DNA from: Bacillota bacterium
GTDB taxonomy: Bacteria; Bacillota; Limnochordia; DTU080; JAAYLA01
NCBI GenBank assembly: GCA_012522135.1
Contig: JAAYLA010000376.1
Coordinates: 1 to 43,066, forward strand
Direction of reading: 5' to 3'
Length of the DNA: 43,066 nucleotides
Shown here: one piece after another, positions 1,688-12,195 of the stretch
Layout: every line of letters starts with the position of its first letter
Numbering within the stretch: the first letter of the stretch is position 1
Notes under the pieces: generated by a model
Seen by the model: the letters and a program-made list of their open reading frames with translations, nothing else
Told to the model about the DNA's origin: nothing
Database searches by the model: none
Made by a program: the position numbers and the translations under genes

Positions 1688-1741
1688 TGGACATGCAAAT
1701 CCCACGTGTGCTAGAATAATACGGTACTGTGACTGGGTCAA
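1688..1741. promoter_or_regulatory. Overlapping divergent sigma-A-like promoters for rpmB and fakA
   Basis: Plus strand: TGGACA(1688-1693)-N18-TAGAAT(1712-1717) with TG extension. Minus strand: TTGACC(1741-1736)-N17-TATTCT(1718-1713). Confidence 0.5.
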
Positions 1742-1761
1742 CAAGAAGGGTGTGATTCCGT

Positions 1762-1953
1762 TTGGCTAGGCGTTGTGTCGTCTGTCAAAAGCAGACGGGA
1801 ACCGGAAACAACGTATCCCACTCCAATCGTACATCTCGTCGCACGTGGGCGCCCAACGTCCAGAAGGTCCGCATCTTGGTCGATAAGCGACCGATGCGAG
1901 CGTACGTCTGCACCCGTTGCCTCAGGGCGGGCAAGGTGCAGCGCGCTATTTAA
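1762..1953 (+). CDS. rpmB: 50S ribosomal protein bL28 (CxxC...CxxC zinc-binding form)
   Basis: MARRCVVCQK...GNNVSHSNRTSRRTWAPNVQKVR...VCTRCLRAGKV; TTG start. Confidence 0.97.
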   Translation: MARRCVVCQKQTGTGNNVSHSNRTSRRTWAPNVQKVRILVDKRPMRAYVCTRCLRAGKVQRAI

Positions 1954-1973
1954 CGGTAGGTGGCTGCGACCTG

Positions 1974-2702
1974 TCACGGGCCACGCGCTGCCTGGACGCG
2001 CCGGTTTGTGGCAGGTCGTATGGCACCTTTCCGATCGACCTCCGCCAAGGCCAGCCATTTTAAGCGCTGTGCACACACCTGTGAATATACACCATTCCAG
2101 GTGGTAACACCTTCCACACTCTCATCGTATGGCAAGACGAACGTATCGAGTCCCGCAAACGGGTTCCGGCCCCGCATTCCCCCGTTCAATATAATACGAA
2201 TCCGGCGAATATCGAGTCCTAGATCGCAAAGGCGACCCAGCATGATGTCGGTCGCTCGCAGGGCAAACGCGTCGGCGGTGGTCACGACCCAAATCACATG
2301 GGACAAGCTGAGCGCGCTGATGGTCGCAAGGTCAAGGCGATGACTCAGGTCGACGATGGCCCAGTCAAAGCCCCGAAATACGGCATTTAACGTGGCAGAC
2401 AGGTCGGAATGTTGGGCCGCAAGGGCGTCCCGCAGATCCATAGGCGCACCTACGAGACTTAAAGTGCGGTTGACGGGAACGGTTATTTTCTCCGGCGGGA
2501 AACGGTGGGCGTGGAGCAAGTGCCGCCCGGGCTGAACGCCGAGAGCGGAAGCCAAGACGCCGCCGCCGTGCAAGTCAAGGTCAACAAGGAGGGTCTTTCG
2601 CCCGCCCTCCGCCAGTCCATGGGCGAGATGGAGGCTAACGAAGGTCTTCCCGACGCCTCCCTTGCCGGACAGCACGGAGACGACCCGTGTTGCGTGCGTC
2701 AT
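1974..2702 (-). CDS. MinD/ParA-superfamily ATPase (CpaE/FlhG-like, no receiver domain)
   Basis: Deviant Walker A SGKGGVGKT, switch region LLVDLD, Walker B-like WAIVDLS; RBS AGGGTGA upstream of ATG. Confidence 0.82.
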   Translation of the reverse strand: MTHATRVVSVLSGKGGVGKTFVSLHLAHGLAEGGRKTLLVDLDLHGGGVLASALGVQPGRHLLHAHRFPPEKITVPVNRTLSLVGAPMDLRDALAAQHSDLSATLNAVFRGFDWAIVDLSHRLDLATISALSLSHVIWVVTTADAFALRATDIMLGRLCDLGLDIRRIRIILNGGMRGRNPFAGLDTFVLPYDESVEGVTTWNGVYSQVCAQRLKWLALAEVDRKGAIRPATNRRVQAARGP

Positions 2703-2736
2703 GGCGGATCACCCTGATTGCGTATGTGTGCGCGAG

Positions 2737-3218
2737 GCCGACAGCCAACCAGGGTGTCGTACCCGTGTGCTATGCACCCGATCGGTTGCAAGCCACTCCC
2801 GGCTGCCGGGGTCCCACCACCGGTCGTGCCCAACGGGGGGGTTCCCCCCTTTCGGGTGTTTTTTTATTGTGTGAACGAGGTGCACCCCGTCGGGTGCGGG
2901 ACATTCCAGCAGCCGAGGTGCCGCACCGGTCGTGTATGCCAAGGACTCCTCCATCGCCTCTATATGATTTTTGATGTAATGACCTGCCCCCACATTGGGG
3001 GCGCCACTCCTCGCAGCTAGGACCAAACGCCGGTCATGTCCAAGGGATGAAACCCCAAAGGGTGCTTCATAATCGTCTACAATCCCGGAAGTTTGATTAT
3101 CCTAGCCGGTATGCGATACGATGCGTGCGAATAAGGACGCTTACAAGCCATGCACAGGATAGGCTGCTATTTTCACCCCCTTACTGGTTGGGCGAACACC
3201 CCCTGGTTGACTGTCGGC
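2737..3218 (-). ncRNA. Large structured ncRNA (482 nt), OLE-RNA-like
   Basis: 5' GCCGACAGUCAACCAGGG pairs with 3' CCCUGGUUGGCUGUCGGC (18 bp, one G-U that works only on the minus strand). Predicted start is about 7 nt after a TTGACA-N18-TATACT promoter. Internal helices: GCUAGGA/UCCUAGC, AUAAUC/GAUUAU, AUGAAG-CCC/GGG-UUUCAU, GCCCCCA/UGGGGGC, CACCCGA/UCGGGUG, GGGG-GGAA-CCCC. No convincing ORF. The OLE assignment rests on recalled motif similarity only. Confidence 0.68.
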
Positions 3219-3224
3219 GAGGCC

Positions 3225-3254
3225 AGTATACCCAACCGGCCGGCAACTTGTCAA
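3225..3254 (-). promoter_or_regulatory. Sigma-A promoter driving the candidate ncRNA
   Basis: TTGACA (3254-3249), 18-bp spacer, TATACT (3230-3225). Same hexamers and spacing as the tRNA-Pro promoter at 12046-12075. Confidence 0.75.
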
Positions 3255-3304
3255 TTGTTTTACATATTGTATCCAATATAAATTGCATGTCGCAAATGTA
3301 AAAT

Positions 3305-3982
3305 TCACCTCGCCCCGGGGGTCGCATTGCGGACGGCCTCTTGCAACTCCCGCCAAGCAGTCGCTGGGTCGGGCTGGCCGAAAATCGCCGAACCGGCCAC
3401 GAGAATGTTTGCTCCCGCCTTACGCGCCAAAGGCGCCGTCGTTACGTCGATGCCTCCGTCGACCTGCACGTCAACGGGCAGGCCCAGATCGGCGACGCGG
3501 CGTGCAACCGCTTCTACCTTTTCCATCGTACGCGCGATGAACGCTTGACCGCCGAAGCCAGGGTTTACCGTCATGATGAGCACCAGATCAATGTCGGGCA
3601 ATAGCCACTCCACGAGGCTTACCGGCGTATGGGGGTTAAGCGCTACGCCTGCGCGAATTCCGTGCTCCTTGATCAGGTGCACGGTCCGGTGCAAATGGGG
3701 ACAAGCTTCCGCGTGCACCGTCAGCTGGTCGGCACCGGCATCCGCAAAGGCTGAGATGAAGCGGTCGGGGTGCTCGATCATCAGGTGGACATCGAAAAAC
3801 TGCTGCGTATGGGCCCGCAGCGCCTTGACTACAGGCGGACCCAGCGTGATATTCGGTACGAAAGCGCCGTCCATCACGTCGATATGCAGCCACTCCGCCT
3901 CTTTGACGCGGGCCACTTCATCGGCAAGGCGCGCGAAATCCGCCGACAAGATCGACGGCGCAACGATCACCTTTTCAGACAT
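3305..3982 (-). CDS. rpe: Ribulose-phosphate 3-epimerase
   Basis: IVAPSILSADF, HIDVMDG, DVHLM, MTVNPGFGGQ, VDGG, VAGSAIF. Start re-called to MSEK (3982). Confidence 0.96.
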   Translation of the reverse strand: MSEKVIVAPSILSADFARLADEVARVKEAEWLHIDVMDGAFVPNITLGPPVVKALRAHTQQFFDVHLMIEHPDRFISAFADAGADQLTVHAEACPHLHRTVHLIKEHGIRAGVALNPHTPVSLVEWLLPDIDLVLIMTVNPGFGGQAFIARTMEKVEAVARRVADLGLPVDVQVDGGIDVTTAPLARKAGANILVAGSAIFGQPDPATAWRELQEAVRNATPGAR

Positions 3983-4037: not shown

Positions 4038-4967
4038 TCACTGATAACGACGTCTCTCCGCCTCTTCCAACTCACCAAGCAGCCGAAGGTAACGTTCGTA
4101 ACGCCCCGGGTCAATTTCGCCGGCACAGACGGCATCTCGCACGGCGCAACCCGGTTCGTTGCGGTGCAGGCACCCCGTAAAACGGCACGCGCCCCGCATC
4201 CGTCCCATCTCGGGGTAAAGCTCTGGAAGGCGTTCTAGCGAAAGCTCGCTCAAATCAAGTACGGAAAAGCCGGGCGAATCGGCGATCCAGCCTCCACCGG
4301 GCATCGGGACGAGCTCTACGGCGCGCGTCGTGTGCCGGCCGCGGCCTAGGCGCCTGCTCACTTCGCCCGTCTCGAAACGCTTTTCTTGTAGCAGCCAGTT
4401 AAGGAGGGAAGACTTACCTACTCCCGACGCGCCGGCGAGAACCGTCAGATGGCCGCTCAAGCCCCTAAGCAGCTCGTCACGACCCAGGTCGGCCTTCGGG
4501 CTCGTGACCGCCGTGGGAAAGCCCGCCCTCTCGTAAACTCGTATATACGCCTCGGCCTCCGCTCGCGAAACCAAATCGGCCTTGTTCCACACGATAAATG
4601 CCTGCAAGCCTTCGGCCTGGGTCAGAACGAGCAACCGGTCGAGTAAGTCGAGACTCGGGGGCGGCTCAGCCAAAGAAGCCACGAGTACCACCTGGTCCAC
4701 GTTGGCGATGTACGGCCGTACGAGCGTCGACCGCCGAGGCAGGACCTCTTCGACGACGCCCTCCCCGTCCCCAACGCGCGCGAAACGGACTACGTCGCCC
4801 GGCAAAATGCGGACGCCCGATTTGCGCAAACGCCCCCTCACATGGCAACGCAGCACGTCGCCGCTCGGCGTGTGCACGGTACTCGCGCCTCCAATCGCCT
4901 GCGTTACGAGTCCCAAATCCGGGTGGTAAGATCCGGAAATGCGGGTCACGATATCTCGAACGTCCAT
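4038..4967 (-). CDS. rsgA: Ribosome small subunit-dependent GTPase A (RsgA/CpgA)
   Basis: Circularly permuted GTPase: NKAD, GASGVGKSS, GRHTT, DSPG; C-terminal CRFTGCLHRNEPGC zinc finger. Confidence 0.96.
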   Translation of the reverse strand: MDVRDIVTRISGSYHPDLGLVTQAIGGASTVHTPSGDVLRCHVRGRLRKSGVRILPGDVVRFARVGDGEGVVEEVLPRRSTLVRPYIANVDQVVLVASLAEPPPSLDLLDRLLVLTQAEGLQAFIVWNKADLVSRAEAEAYIRVYERAGFPTAVTSPKADLGRDELLRGLSGHLTVLAGASGVGKSSLLNWLLQEKRFETGEVSRRLGRGRHTTRAVELVPMPGGGWIADSPGFSVLDLSELSLERLPELYPEMGRMRGACRFTGCLHRNEPGCAVRDAVCAGEIDPGRYERYLRLLGELEEAERRRYQ

Positions 4968-5017: not shown

Positions 5018-7153
5018 TCAGCGGGCTTCCGCGATGAGTCCCTGGGCCCTCAGTTCGCCTCCGATATACACTTGGTACATCGCGCCCGCTCCCCGTCCTT
5101 TGAGCATGTGGGTCACACGGGCATCTCCCCGGTGCACTCCATAGTAAACACGGCGAGCGCTGATGTTGTCGATGATGACGATCTCGACTTCTTGCTCGGG
5201 ACCCGGTGGAACGTGAATCGTAATGAGCGATTGCACGATGACGTCGCCGTCGGATGCTGTCTCGTCGGTTGCCGTCTGACCTCCTGCGGACGGCACGAAA
5301 CCTATCTGCGTCGCAGCCGCCGGACGGTAGACGAAGTTGACCACTGAACCTACCTCTACCTCGGCTCCCGGCTCGGGGAATTGATCGGTCACCTGACCGG
5401 GCTGAAAGTTCGGGTCTTCTTCCCCGAACGTCTCCCCTACCACAAGGCCCAGTTCCTCGACACGCTGCACGGCAAGTTCAAGGGGCTGCCCACGAAAATC
5501 CGGCACCTGTACGAGCGGCAACGGTTCGGCGCCCGTACTGAAAACGAGATCGACGGCGGTACCGCGCAGCACACGGGCATGGGGGGCCGGGTCTTGGGCG
5601 ACGACTAAGTTGGGCGGAACATCCAATCGGTATTCCGTCGTCACCTCACCGACCTCGAGCCCCCATTGCACAAGGCGGAGCATGGCTTCACGCTCCGAGT
5701 GCATGGTCAGATCCGGCACTTCGACGATCTCTCTGCCGATGCTGACGTGAACCTCTATCTGGCGTCCCATCTTCACTGTCCGTCCGGGATCTTGCAACTG
5801 CCGCACGATCGTATTCACCGGCTGGTCCGAATTGACTTCCCGGACGATGCTCAGACCGAGGCCGTGCTCCTCCAATACGGCGCGCGCTTGCTCGACGGTC
5901 ATGCCGAGAACCTCCGGAACGACCACGTCCTCGGGAAATAGACGGTCAAAGAAGGAAAGGCCTGCCCACACCGCGCCGGAAGTGAAGGACAGAAAGATGA
6001 CGAGACCCAAAACAATGCGAAAGGCCAATGAGCGGCGTTTCTTTTTCTTGGCAGGCACCTGTTCGTCCTCCTCCTCCGGTGACGTGCCGTCTGCCTGGCC
6101 GGCTTCCGACTCGGTCCGGGACGCGCGGACGATGGTCGCCTCCAGCCCTGCCGCCCCGGCTCCCACGAGCGCCTGCTTCATTTCTTCCTCGGCCGGGAGC
6201 TGTGCTACGATCGTTGTCTCTTCATCAGGATCATGCGCCGTCCGCTCTCCCGCCGTTGCCTCCCCCGGATGATCGGGGTGCGGTCCGGGCTCCACGACCG
6301 TCACCGAGGCCGCGGCCACGGGTTCGGTCCTGGCACGATCGGCACGGACGCGCTGCAGGTCGGCCAGCATCTCGCCGATCGTCCCGTAGCGTTGGCTCGG
6401 TTCCTTTGCCATCGCCCGCAAGATCACCTTCTCCAGCGCCTCGGGTACATCGGGACACGCACGGCGCGGGGAATCCGGATCGCTCTGCAGATGTTTGAGT
6501 GCGACTGCTACGGGGCTTTCGCCGTCGAAGGGGACCTTACCCGTCACCATCTCGTAAAGAAGCACGCCGACGGAGTAGATATCGGAAAATACACCTACCT
6601 GCCGGCCAATAGCTTGTTCGGGCGACAGGTAGTGCACGGAGCCGATGACCGTTCCGGTTTGCGTCAACGTGGCCGTGCTGGCAGCCCGCGCGATGCCGAA
6701 GTCCGTCACCTTCACGTGTCCGTCGCGGGTGACCAGGATGTTGTGGGGTTTAATGTCGCGGTGAATGAGTCCCTGTTCGTGGGCCGTCTCGAGCGCCAGG
6801 CAAACTCCTTCGGCGATGTCGAGTGCCTTCGCGACCGGCAGCCGGCCTTGCTCACGCAGTATCTCCTTCAAGTTGCGACCTTCGACGTACTCCATCACGA
6901 TGTAATGCACGTCGCCGTCGGTCCCGACGTCAAATATGTTCACGACGTTAGGATGGGAAAGGCTGGCCGCCGCCTGGGCCTCACGCCGGAAGCGTTCGAC
7001 GAAGTCGGTGTCCGCGGCGTATTGGGGCCGGAGCACCTTGATCGCGACGCGTCGGCCGAGGATACGGTCGCGCGCGCGATAGACGATGGCCATACCGCCT
7101 TCGCCGCGTCGTTCTAAGATCTCGTATCGGTCGCTCAGGATCGATCCGACCAC
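5018..7153 (-). CDS. pknB: PASTA-domain Ser/Thr protein kinase (PrkC/PknB/Stk1)
   Basis: GEGGMAIVY, VAIK, HRDIKPHN, DFG, GSVHYLSPEQ; one TM helix; three PASTA repeats (VPEVLG, VPDLT, VPDFRG). Start re-called to GTG at 7153 after a GGGGGA RBS. Confidence 0.95.
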   Translation of the reverse strand: MVGSILSDRYEILERRGEGGMAIVYRARDRILGRRVAIKVLRPQYAADTDFVERFRREAQAAASLSHPNVVNIFDVGTDGDVHYIVMEYVEGRNLKEILREQGRLPVAKALDIAEGVCLALETAHEQGLIHRDIKPHNILVTRDGHVKVTDFGIARAASTATLTQTGTVIGSVHYLSPEQAIGRQVGVFSDIYSVGVLLYEMVTGKVPFDGESPVAVALKHLQSDPDSPRRACPDVPEALEKVILRAMAKEPSQRYGTIGEMLADLQRVRADRARTEPVAAASVTVVEPGPHPDHPGEATAGERTAHDPDEETTIVAQLPAEEEMKQALVGAGAAGLEATIVRASRTESEAGQADGTSPEEEDEQVPAKKKKRRSLAFRIVLGLVIFLSFTSGAVWAGLSFFDRLFPEDVVVPEVLGMTVEQARAVLEEHGLGLSIVREVNSDQPVNTIVRQLQDPGRTVKMGRQIEVHVSIGREIVEVPDLTMHSEREAMLRLVQWGLEVGEVTTEYRLDVPPNLVVAQDPAPHARVLRGTAVDLVFSTGAEPLPLVQVPDFRGQPLELAVQRVEELGLVVGETFGEEDPNFQPGQVTDQFPEPGAEVEVGSVVNFVYRPAAATQIGFVPSAGGQTATDETASDGDVIVQSLITIHVPPGPEQEVEIVIIDNISARRVYYGVHRGDARVTHMLKGRGAGAMYQVYIGGELRAQGLIAEAR

Positions 7154-7184
7154 AACAACGGTCCCCCACTCTTGAGGCACATCC

Positions 7185-9695
7185 TCACGGCCTGTTCGCA
7201 CCCACTGCGCCGCTGGCGACGTACTCGGCGCTGCGCTGGGCAATCGGTCCAGCCCCGTACGCACCCGACCCACCGTTCTCTACCAAGACCGCAAACGCCA
7301 CGGCGGGCTGCCTGGCAGGTGCGAAACCGATAAACCATGCGTGAGGCTCTCCATGTGGATTCTCAGCCGTACCGGTCTTTCCTGCCAGAAGCGACGGGTC
7401 GATCCTTCCCGCGAAGGTGCCTTCGGCGACGGCCTTGCGCAAGCCCTCCTGTAGAATCTCCGCCGTTTCGGGACTGACCGCCCGGATCGGGGCCGTCCGC
7501 ACGCCTGCAGCAAGCCGGCCCGCCGCCTCAAAATGCGTTACAAGGTGAGGATAAACCCGGTAACCCCCGTTGGCAATGACAGACGTCACAAGAGCCATCT
7601 CGAGGGGCGTTACCAGAACATCCCCCTGCCCGATGCCCGCGGCTGCCAACTGCACCGAGGACTGCAGACTGCCGAGCCGCCCTGCCCGGTAGGGAATCTC
7701 AAACCCAGGCTGATCACCGATACCCAACGCATGGCTCTGCAGGCGGAGGGGCTCCGGACCAAGTGCGACGGCCAAGCGGACAAAAACGACGTTCGACGAG
7801 AGAGCCAAAGCCTCAGCGGGTGACAGTCGGCCGAGGGCCCTGCCTCCTGCGTTCTGGACGACATAGCCGTCGATCACGATGCTGCCGCCGTCGTCCCACC
7901 GTGTCTCGGACGTAACGAGTCCACCTTCTAACGCGGCGGCAAGAACAACCGGTTTAAAGGCCGAGCCCGGCGGATAAAGCCCCTGCGTAGCACGGTTGAG
8001 CAAAGGGCTGCGCTCGTCTGCGAGCGCGTCGGACGTCACGAGGCCCGCGGCCGGCCTCGGCGAACTCGCCATCGCGAGCACGGCACCGCTCCACGGATCG
8101 AGCACTACCACCGCGCCCGTAAGATCGCCGAGGGCCTGTTCCACCACTTCCTGCAGAGCCAGGTCAATCGAAGTATGCACGCGCGTCGCGCCCGCGGCAA
8201 CGCCCCCTCCGGTGATCCCGCGACTCAGTGCGCCGTCGAAGGTGCGTTCGAGACCTGCAGTACCGTACCGGGGGTGAACGTAACCTACCGTGTGAATCAA
8301 CGACGGCAGAACGGGCAGACGCATCCCCGGTTCGACCGCCGTGGTGAGATTTTCTCCGCTCCGTGAGACGATTCCTCCCCTAAGCTCGGCGGATACGGCC
8401 ATACGCAGGGCCACGGCGCGAGGGTGCGCGAGCAACCTGGGCCCCGCTACTAGCGTCCAATAGACTAGGGGAAGACCGACCAGGAGCCCGAAGGGCAGTG
8501 CCCATGCAAGAGCGCGAACGGGACGCGGCGCGCCCTTACACCTGCTTTGGGGGCCGGTCGAAGGTGTGTGACCTAGCGCGAGCAACAGAAAGGTCGCCAG
8601 AAGGGAACTTCCGCCATAGCTGACCAGGGGTAGGGTGATGCCCACTACCGGCGTGATGCCCACGGCTCCCGTACAGGCGAGGAGAGCCTGCACGCCCAAG
8701 AGAAGCCCGCACCCGACGCCGAGTTGACGCTCGAAGCCTTCCGTCTGGCCCCACGCCCTTTGGAGTAAAGATGCGACCAGTCCCGCCAGCAAGCCGATCA
8801 CAAGGAGCCCGCCGGCCAGGCCGATCCGCTCGACAAGACCAACTAAGGGCAGATCGGTGGCAGACGCCGGCACGTCGATCACGCTTCCGTACCAACCGTT
8901 GCCGCTCCAGCGTCCGTGAGCCAGAGCGAAACGAGCCTGCACCGACTGGAAGCCCGCGTCGAAGGGATCGTCCCACGGCGCGAGCCAAGCAGCAAAACGT
9001 CTCGTCAGGTGAGGATAGCGGTGTACGAGCAAGAAACCGCCCGCGGCAACGGGCAAGGCTGCCCCGGTCACATACGGCAGCGGCGTCCCGGCGGCGAGGG
9101 CCCACGCCATTCCTGTCAGGACGATTACCAGCACCGGTCCGAAGTCCCTTTGGATAGCCGCGGTGACCAAAGCCGCAAAGGTCGTCAGCAGGGGCAGCAC
9201 ATACGCACGCAGGGGAACCCGGTCGCGGGCAGACAGAAGCGGAGCCCAGCATGGGATGAGAAGCACTTGAACGAACTGGATCGGCTGCACGGCGTAGGCG
9301 CCCAATGGTAGCCAGCTGCGGGAGCCGCCAACGGATCTTCCGACGAACGCCGTCAGGGCCAGCACCAACGTCGCGAGCGCGGCGATGTACATGCGACGGG
9401 CCAAGAACCACCCGACGAGCGCCGGTCGCATAGAGGCGAAAAGGACTGCGCCACACAGTAACCAGACCATTTGTCTGAAAGCCAGCTGCGGCTCGTCGGT
9501 GCGCAGCAAAGCGAGGGAAAGGGCGGTGAGCGGCGCCGCCCAGATCAAGATCCGCTGATCGGCCCGCGTGCGTGTGCCCGCTACGAGCCACGCGAGGAGG
9601 TACACGGCGGCCGCGCGCCAGCCCTCGGCCTCCGGGAACACGGCTGCGACAATGCCGGCACCGGCGAGGAGAACGGCAGGATACGCGCCAGGCAC
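7185..9695 (-). CDS. Fused FtsW/RodA (SEDS) glycosyltransferase - class B PBP transpeptidase (PbpA-like)
   Basis: N-half is multi-TM with GGSRSW, QRDFG, WDDPFDAGFQ, PASATD and LPLVSYGGSS. C-half has SAFK, SSN and KTG. Single uninterrupted frame. Start uncertain (GTG at 9695 chosen; frame open to 9779). Confidence 0.85.
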   Translation of the reverse strand: MPGAYPAVLLAGAGIVAAVFPEAEGWRAAAVYLLAWLVAGTRTRADQRILIWAAPLTALSLALLRTDEPQLAFRQMVWLLCGAVLFASMRPALVGWFLARRMYIAALATLVLALTAFVGRSVGGSRSWLPLGAYAVQPIQFVQVLLIPCWAPLLSARDRVPLRAYVLPLLTTFAALVTAAIQRDFGPVLVIVLTGMAWALAAGTPLPYVTGAALPVAAGGFLLVHRYPHLTRRFAAWLAPWDDPFDAGFQSVQARFALAHGRWSGNGWYGSVIDVPASATDLPLVGLVERIGLAGGLLVIGLLAGLVASLLQRAWGQTEGFERQLGVGCGLLLGVQALLACTGAVGITPVVGITLPLVSYGGSSLLATFLLLALGHTPSTGPQSRCKGAPRPVRALAWALPFGLLVGLPLVYWTLVAGPRLLAHPRAVALRMAVSAELRGGIVSRSGENLTTAVEPGMRLPVLPSLIHTVGYVHPRYGTAGLERTFDGALSRGITGGGVAAGATRVHTSIDLALQEVVEQALGDLTGAVVVLDPWSGAVLAMASSPRPAAGLVTSDALADERSPLLNRATQGLYPPGSAFKPVVLAAALEGGLVTSETRWDDGGSIVIDGYVVQNAGGRALGRLSPAEALALSSNVVFVRLAVALGPEPLRLQSHALGIGDQPGFEIPYRAGRLGSLQSSVQLAAAGIGQGDVLVTPLEMALVTSVIANGGYRVYPHLVTHFEAAGRLAAGVRTAPIRAVSPETAEILQEGLRKAVAEGTFAGRIDPSLLAGKTGTAENPHGEPHAWFIGFAPARQPAVAFAVLVENGGSGAYGAGPIAQRSAEYVASGAVGANRP

Positions 9696-12045: not shown

Positions 12046-12075
12046 TTGACACAGGGCGATCAGCTCGTATATACT
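12046..12075 (+). promoter_or_regulatory. Sigma-A promoter of tRNA-Pro
   Basis: TTGACA(12046-12051)-N18-TATACT(12070-12075). Confidence 0.7.
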
Positions 12076-12118: not shown

Positions 12119-12195
12119 CGGAGTGTAGCGCAGCTTGGTAGCGCGCCACGTTCGGGACGTGGAGGTCCGGGGTTCAAATCCCCGCACTCCGACCA
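12119..12195 (+). tRNA. tRNA-Pro (anticodon CGG)
   Basis: CGGAGTG acceptor stem, anticodon arm CCACG-TTCGGGA-CGTGG, T-loop GGTTCAAATCC, encoded CCA; 77 nt. Confidence 0.98.

Follow-up and report, generated by a model that had tools for sequence, protein, structure and literature searches.

The stretch from 3218 down to 2737 on the minus strand of a 43,066-nt contig from a Bacillota bacterium (class Limnochordia; the whole contig is called the window below) is tentatively best explained as the structured 5′ leader of the mRNA of a lineage-restricted ParA/MinD-type ATPase, and not as a free OLE-like RNA. Our confidence in this reading falls a little short of even. The stretch spans the interval from a promoter to an ATG with no terminator on the same strand and no second promoter, and it is therefore at least the 5′ leader of the gene. 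The element is an orphan, a strongly folding leader or insertion which is absent from the libraries searched, yet of a known kind (structured leader or transcribed repeat-bounded insertion).

Locus and promoter

On the minus strand, genes for a PASTA kinase (5018–7273), rsgA (4038–4967) and rpe (3305–3982) are followed by a 602-nt spacer, the ATPase gene (1974–2702) and then fakA (1–1629). The features around the spacer are the following.

3305–3982, minus: rpe (ribulose-phosphate 3-epimerase), the upstream gene, with no terminator-like site after it on its strand
3225–3254, minus: sigma-70-type promoter TTGACA-N18-TATACT, 11 of 12 positions matched, with an A/T-rich tract directly upstream of the -35 hexamer
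2700–2720, minus: Shine-Dalgarno-like AGGGTGA and ATG (2702–2700) of the ParA-like gene, from reading the sequence and the N-termini of four relatives
1974–2702, minus: orphan ParA/MinD-superfamily P-loop ATPase of 242 aa (AAA_31, 56.5 bits; four relatives)
2834–2870, plus: terminator-like G/C hairpin and T-run inside domain C (see below), from three overlapping plus-strand calls
1762–1953, plus: rpmB (ribosomal protein L28; PF00830, 73.6 bits at 1768–1935)

The ATPase scores below every NCBIfam cut-off. Its start codon is established by alignment with the N-termini of four relatives (P0002–P0005, 52–72% identity), which were found among 5.8 billion proteins and all come from read-archive assemblies. 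The family is very small (five members found, including the query) and shares invariant blocks, for example DLSHRLDLAT and NGVYSQVC.

The promoter agrees with the claim of the initial annotation that it has the same architecture as the promoter of tRNA-Pro: the tRNA-Pro(CGG) promoter at 12046–12075 carries identical hexamers at identical spacing. The -10 hexamer ends 6 nt ahead of the first helix arm of the stretch, and the predicted transcription start lies at about 3218. The stretch fills nearly all of the interval between promoter and ATG, which gives a leader of about 516 nt. Within the 3.22-Mb genome there are five exact copies of TTGACA-N18-TATACT, versus one of a reversed control. The three other copies (G000:C91:1496–1525, minus; C347:11767–11796, plus; C382:24535–24564, minus) have no Rfam RNA nearby, and the idea that this promoter class marks stable RNAs was rejected on that ground.

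The leader position was examined by a scan of 2400–3600, which for promoters detects sigma-70-type consensus sites only. Four promoter-like sites were found in the scanned region against 0.4 expected in shuffles. All those on the minus strand fall within 3302–3225, none being located downstream of 3254–3225, and the same scan gave no minus-strand terminator-like site, its single terminator-like site being the plus-strand one at about 2834–2870. The stretch thereby lies between promoter and ORF with neither a same-strand terminator nor a second promoter in the region scanned. A hidden protein gene in the spacer (ORFs of at least 25 aa were listed) was also considered and rejected. The three ORFs tested in the stretch, at 2709–3026 (minus), 2718–3020 (plus) and 3047–3301 (plus), have no Pfam match at E ≤ 1, as is the case for an ORF outside the spacer at 1738–2076 (minus).

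Downstream, rpmB is convergent with the ATPase gene and ends 20 nt from the ATPase stop codon. It has a promoter of its own, TGGACA-18-TAGAAT, at 1688–1717 (plus). The interval 1630–1973 could be taken for non-coding DNA in which an RNA has its 3′ end, at 1733, but PF00830 places rpmB at 1768–1935 (plus). Since no terminator-like site was found between 1400 and 2400, the one at 2834–2870 would be the first available to rpmB transcripts, as far as sequence can tell. To reach it, they would have to extend for about 900 nt in antisense orientation over the ATPase gene.

The closing helix and the predicted fold

The two ends of the stretch are joined by a helix, here called P1, and the interior is predicted to form three hairpin domains. 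All five elements lie on the minus strand and are given in 5′ to 3′ order of the RNA.

3201–3218, minus: 5′ arm of P1, equally one terminal inverted repeat (repeat search I1, pair probability 0.96, duplex energy, shuffles)
3014–3108, minus: domain A, a 95-nt irregular hairpin of 10+5+4+3+10 bp (pair probabilities 0.88–1.00; present in the minimum free energy and centroid structures)
2978–3008, minus: domain B, a 13-bp hairpin (pair probabilities 0.82–0.94)
2796–2918, minus: domain C, 13+7 bp closing a multiloop with two hairpins and an A7 run (pair probabilities 0.91–0.96)
2737–2754, minus: 3′ arm of P1, equally the other terminal inverted repeat (I1, I10, fold, duplex energy)

Read directly from the sequence, 3218–3201 (GCCGACAGTCAACCAGGG) is complementary to 2754–2737 over 18 bp of the minus strand. 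The single position outside Watson–Crick pairing is U·G on the minus strand and A·C on the plus strand, so that the full helix pairs on the minus strand only. The repeat search reports the arms as 21 nt at 90% (I1), and the duplex energy is -38.7 kcal/mol. P1 is the longest contiguous Watson–Crick/GU stem of the 602-nt spacer. A stem of at least 18 bp was reached in none of 300 dinucleotide shuffles of the spacer (maximum 17, mean 12.1), and the helix, with its strand-specific G–U pair, stands as the initial annotation had described it. P1 begins at the place where the transcription start is predicted.

The 482-nt minus-strand RNA has a minimum free energy of -222.2 kcal/mol, corresponding to a z-score of -5.76 (0 of 100 shuffles; a second estimate gave -7.8). 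For the plus strand of the same 482 nt the values are -198.9 kcal/mol and -3.38. When P1 is left out, the 446-nt interior scores z -3.5 on the minus strand versus -0.8 on the plus strand (40 shuffles each), and 26 random 446-nt windows of the same genome have a mean z of 0.08 (sd 1.09, minimum -2.3). The structure signal is therefore real and strand-specific. Eleven internal helices are predicted with a mean pair probability of at least 0.85, in line with the six or more that had been proposed, and they form the hairpin domains at RNA positions 111–205, 211–241 and 301–423. The proposed GGAA tetraloop corresponds to a G6-AA-C7 run. It can be drawn as such a loop, but the minimum free energy structure closes it with 3 nt instead. 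The 482-nt RNA is best regarded as a predicted unit.

Sequence variation was seen at four places. The only SNP inside the element is 3068 C>T, present in three of four runs (X15, X16 and X12). It turns a predicted G–C pair of domain A into A·C with no compensating change, which counts against the leader reading. An extra G after 2834 (X19) lies in the C-run of a hairpin, 3271 A>C (X19) lies upstream of the -35 hexamer, and 2637 A>G (X15, X16) falls within the ATPase ORF.

The 3′ arm of P1 overlaps a segment, 2746–2756, able to pair with the Shine-Dalgarno region instead: 2756–2746 can form 11 bp, one of them G–U, with 2720–2710. In silico deletion of the 5′ arm does produce this pairing. The pairing was matched or bettered in 95 of 2000 shuffles and in 399 of 3000 random genomic 42-mers, and the local anti-Shine-Dalgarno hairpin has a z-score of -0.08. 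A switch of this type is thus not above background and is kept as a possibility only.

Relation to OLE RNA

The initial annotation had seen an ordered series of OLE motifs in the stretch and proposed a compact, relocated OLE variant or a related new class. The supposed motif order is the one feature which argues for OLE in particular, to which a matching size class and a Bacillota host can be added. The covariance-model search which the annotation had itself suggested does not return OLE. No match to RF01071 was obtained at the gathering score (50 bits), nor at E ≤ 10 with permissive filters over 2600–3400. At the gathering score, Rfam 15 finds only the tRNA at 12119–12192 in the whole window, and the permissive Rfam scan of 2600–3400 gives four rows with E-values of 2.2–7.9, none of them OLE.

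The genome does encode a bona fide OLE RNA elsewhere, at G000:C321:25838–26470 on the minus strand (L218:1501–2133), which scores 468.1 bits and covers model positions 1–616 of 616. The same model matches none of 14 control genomes. This OLE lies directly upstream of dxs, at a distance of 208 nt. The OLE–dxs interval holds no obvious ORF at the place expected for oapA. Compared with this RNA, the candidate shows blastn matches of at most 11 nt (best E 0.45) and none by nhmmer. Six of the ten listed motifs, including all the long ones, are missing from the genome's own OLE; only TGAAG, GGAA, TGCAA and CCCTGG occur in it, and the supposed motif order is not borne out.

OLE RNAs are typically found in an isoprenoid locus, in the company of ispA, oapA and dxs. 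The candidate resembles them as a large predicted structured RNA with a strong promoter in front, in an anaerobic or thermophilic Bacillota-type host. It differs in that the OLE RNA has about 616 nt and lies upstream of dxs, whereas the candidate has 482 nt and lies between rpe and a ParA-like gene, with neither a covariance-model match nor similarity to the OLE of its host. The gathering-score and permissive searches, together with this comparison, led us to reject OLE and any other Rfam family. With RF01071 silent at E ≤ 10 and a full-length OLE of 468 bits already adjoining dxs in the same genome, the probability of a compact, relocated OLE variant is practically negligible, and nothing relates the stretch to OLE as a kindred new class either. 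The narrower part of the proposal survives, namely a strongly folding minus-strand transcript from a strong promoter; the OLE identity does not. The case illustrates how a supposed motif order can lead to a confident OLE call which one covariance-model search overturns. The parts of the literature on OLE and large noncoding RNAs that were accessible contain no work bearing on this locus, which is not a claim of absence from print.

Distribution among relatives

Within its genome the element is single-copy. Searches of the 399-contig assembly by nhmmer and blastn give no match besides the element, and each P1 arm occurs once at up to three mismatches; repeats may have been collapsed in this assembly. 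BLAST found no homologue in 40 relatives (one of 41 genomes, the query itself), and nhmmer none in 54 loci, including 29 rpe loci. Two single-sequence covariance models, R1 and R2 (domains A+B; domain C), were run over 95 class genomes including the query. In the other 94 genomes they gave nothing credible: R1 finds itself only, and R2 finds itself and one 41-nt match in G072 whose E-value of 0.009 is chance level for 95 genomes. Plasmid and phage collections likewise hold no match to the element. This failure to find a homologue by BLAST (0 of 40) or in the class genomes (0 of 94, bar the one chance-level match) counts against the leader reading as far as sequence comparison goes.

The ATPase gene shows a similarly narrow distribution. 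No orthologue was found in the 40 relatives (best 35%), in 400 other genomes of the phylum, or among the matches listed from the genome collection (best full-length about 31–34%). Among the matches listed from metagenome contigs, the sole one to the ATPase is an identical contig of 1896 nt (L138). In ten relatives of the same order, rpe and rpmB are convergent and separated by spacers of 320–1100 nt, and all ten lack both the element and the ATPase gene in this syntenic position. Judged by these searches, conservation appears undetected beyond one species-level population.

The rpe–rpmB spacers of the same ten relatives carry an almost invariant block of about 22 nt, TCCCTCAYGGGCATGGCTGG(TG), at the following loci.

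Minus strand: L029:1114–1245, L030:1190–1321, L038:1159–1290, L039:1158–1289, L050:1092–1223 and L035:1114–1245
Plus strand: L033:2304–2435, L042:2336–2467, L045:2359–2490 and L049:2449–2580

An A-run stands in front of the block and, in several relatives, a long hairpin behind it. The loci match no Rfam family at the gathering score, and RNAalifold gives 7 pairs with 0 compensatory changes. The block may be an undescribed small RNA, a 3′-UTR element or a protein-binding site. Homology of the block to positions 3141–3159 of the window was rejected: the block HMM misses the spacer, and a local-alignment score at least as high is obtained in 36 of 300 shuffles.

Coverage in RNA libraries

At least half of the sampled sequence words are present in 20 run records, which belong to 16 studies of digester, compost, faeces, fertiliser and wastewater samples. 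Six of the runs are metatranscriptomes, and nine of the DNA runs may be sources of the assembly. Three RNA runs and one DNA run were compared, all as contigs with one depth figure per contig. The RNA contigs cover 1733–3517 in X15 (depth 104.5), 1733–3368 in X19 (depth 65.8) and 1761 to beyond 4300 in X16 (depth 93.9). In all three RNA libraries examined they are continuous through leader and ORF, and the DNA contig passes straight through the region. The neighbouring contigs on the rpe side have depths of 16.9 (X15) and 4.7 (X19), the latter run leaving rpe partly uncovered. This corresponds to a 6- to 14-fold excess for the element-bearing contigs in X15 and X19, which is not creditable to the candidate because the same contigs include rpmB, and rpmB could account for the depth.

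The three RNA runs, which belong to three studies, all break at 1733, with a sequencing adapter attached in X15. Position 1733 lies 29 nt ahead of the rpmB start codon, and the break there is more readily taken for the 5′ end of the rpmB mRNA. No strand-change or excision joint at the arms is listed in the four runs, in which contigs hide minority forms. The contigs show only that RNA libraries contain the region and that it continues into the ORF without a break; strand, ends and abundance are beyond what they can report.

Competing explanations

A near-perfect terminal repeat of 18 bp with 3-bp repeats at its flanks also resembles a mobile insertion, and this counts against the leader reading. 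The flanking repeats are the following.

2734–2736, no strand assigned: GAG next to the left arm, possibly a 3-bp target-site duplication (direct repeat D2)
3219–3221, no strand assigned: GAG flanking the right arm (direct repeat D2)

A serious rival to the leader reading is therefore that MITE-like or foreign DNA was inserted between the transcription start and the ribosome-binding site and is tolerated there with no selected RNA function. We consider this rival unlikely. An origin by insertion and a designed RNA are equally plausible. As inverted repeats the arms are identical at 17 of 18 positions. GAG stands beside both of them, although a 3-bp repeat is expected by chance in 1 of 64 cases. 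Removal of the element together with one GAG leaves TATACT, 6 nt, 31 nt with AGGGTGA, and the ATG, which is an ordinary leader of about 30 nt. The GC content of 50–54% over 2851–3300 (62.7% in the genome) and the lack of element and ATPase gene in the rpe–rpmB spacer of all ten same-order relatives also suggest an arrival from elsewhere. Other searches count against an insertion. The element and each of its arms (at up to three mismatches) occur once in the 399-contig assembly, a search for the arm pattern yields 15 single hits, spread over 14 other genomes of the class, where its reversed control yields 34, the plasmid and phage collections have no match, and the three inner ORFs tested at E ≤ 1 gave no Pfam match and so no transposase remnant. 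A passive insertion furthermore leaves the strand-specific excess folding of the interior unexplained. That same excess (an interior z of -3.5, beyond all 26 genomic controls) argues against a spacer with no function at all, in which the fold would derive from terminator hairpins of the convergent genes and from a chance or relic inverted repeat. The coincidence of domain C with the plus-strand terminator-like site, the missing evidence of conservation and the sole SNP, which breaks a predicted pair, are what such a spacer would offer, but a P1 beyond all 300 shuffles, beginning where transcription is predicted to begin, is not readily accommodated, and we regard this account as distinctly unlikely.

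The RNA could also act on its own. In that case it would be a free-standing structured noncoding RNA and represent a new class; cleavage at P1 would free it from the ATPase mRNA, and it would act in trans or within a ribonucleoprotein. Its size, closing helix, multi-domain fold and strong z-scores fit a large noncoding RNA, its promoter has the hexamers and spacing of the tRNA-Pro promoter, no Rfam family claims it, so that it would be new, and all three RNA libraries examined cover it with contigs. These contigs cannot show a discrete RNA, however, and their depth may come from rpmB. The RNA also has no terminator of its own and none before the ParA-like ORF, no Rfam RNA is found close to the three other copies of the promoter pattern, and conservation is undetected beyond one species-level population. 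A free RNA is for these reasons quite unlikely. We find improbable the more elaborate version in which a new RNA class of about 480 nt, confined to an uncultured Limnochordia-like lineage of thermophilic digesters and compost, is cut from the ATPase mRNA at P1 and forms an RNA–ATPase pair. Lastly, the inverted repeats have a length and spacing suitable for an invertible switch, in which a recombinase would flip the 446-bp segment, turn the internal terminator-like site, currently antisense, into the sense orientation and shut the ATPase gene off. A single orientation was seen in four runs (one DNA, three RNA), with no strand-change joints, which is weak evidence as contigs hide minority forms, and the annotated neighbours (prkC, rsgA, rpe, rpmB and fakA) include no recombinase. 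Such a switch is very improbable.

A possible mode of action

If the stretch is a leader of the ATPase mRNA, the transcript from the promoter at 3254–3225 would run through it into the ATPase ORF, and its ends would close the 18-bp helix around three stable hairpin domains. Long perfect stems are what double-strand-specific RNases recognise. P1 could then act in the RNA as a processing or stability element of the RNase III type, and processing at this helix could either free the domain or determine how stable the mRNA downstream of it is. P1 may in addition set the access to the ribosome-binding site, with the Shine-Dalgarno sequence 17 nt and the start codon 34 nt downstream. Together, processing or stability at P1 and ribosome access would tune the expression of the ATPase. 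On the opposite strand, domain C would offer the convergent rpmB transcript its first terminator-like site. The element may have entered the locus as an insertion, downstream of the transcription start and ahead of the ribosome-binding site; such an origin is compatible with a leader role.

Related systems

Long structured 5′ leaders such as riboswitches, T-boxes and those of the rne/rpoS type occupy the same position between promoter and ORF with no terminator between, and the candidate shares with them a closing helix whose 3′ arm can alternatively pair with the Shine-Dalgarno region. It differs from them by having no Rfam family and an alternative pairing which does not exceed background.

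The stems bracketing rRNA precursors provide a second parallel. There too, a long near-perfect helix formed by distant sequences encloses structured RNA. RNase III substrates comprise about two turns of uninterrupted double-stranded RNA. P1, with 18 bp (21 with mismatches), lies at the short end for RNase III, and cleavage here is putative.

Repeats of the Correia/NEMIS type in Neisseria and the enterobacterial ERIC elements also form long mRNA stems from their terminal repeats, are flanked by short direct repeats and may lie between promoter and ribosome-binding site. When located in 5′ leaders, these elements are associated with RNase III cleavage and effects on mRNA stability. They measure 100–160 bp and exist in tens to hundreds of copies, whereas the candidate is a single-copy element of 482 bp with no family in 94 class genomes.

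Biological implications

The meaning of the element for this lineage depends on which explanation holds. If it is a tolerated insertion, the locus would be a natural case in which an element of 480 bp lies between transcription start and ribosome-binding site and does not silence the gene. The RNA of an RNA–ATPase pair, if such a pair exists, would be made from a tRNA-grade promoter, and the pair would have no described counterpart. Should the stretch prove to be a processed RNA or a functional leader, a small, uncharacterised family of ParA/MinD ATPases would be linked to an orphan RNA that is unusually large and folds unusually well.
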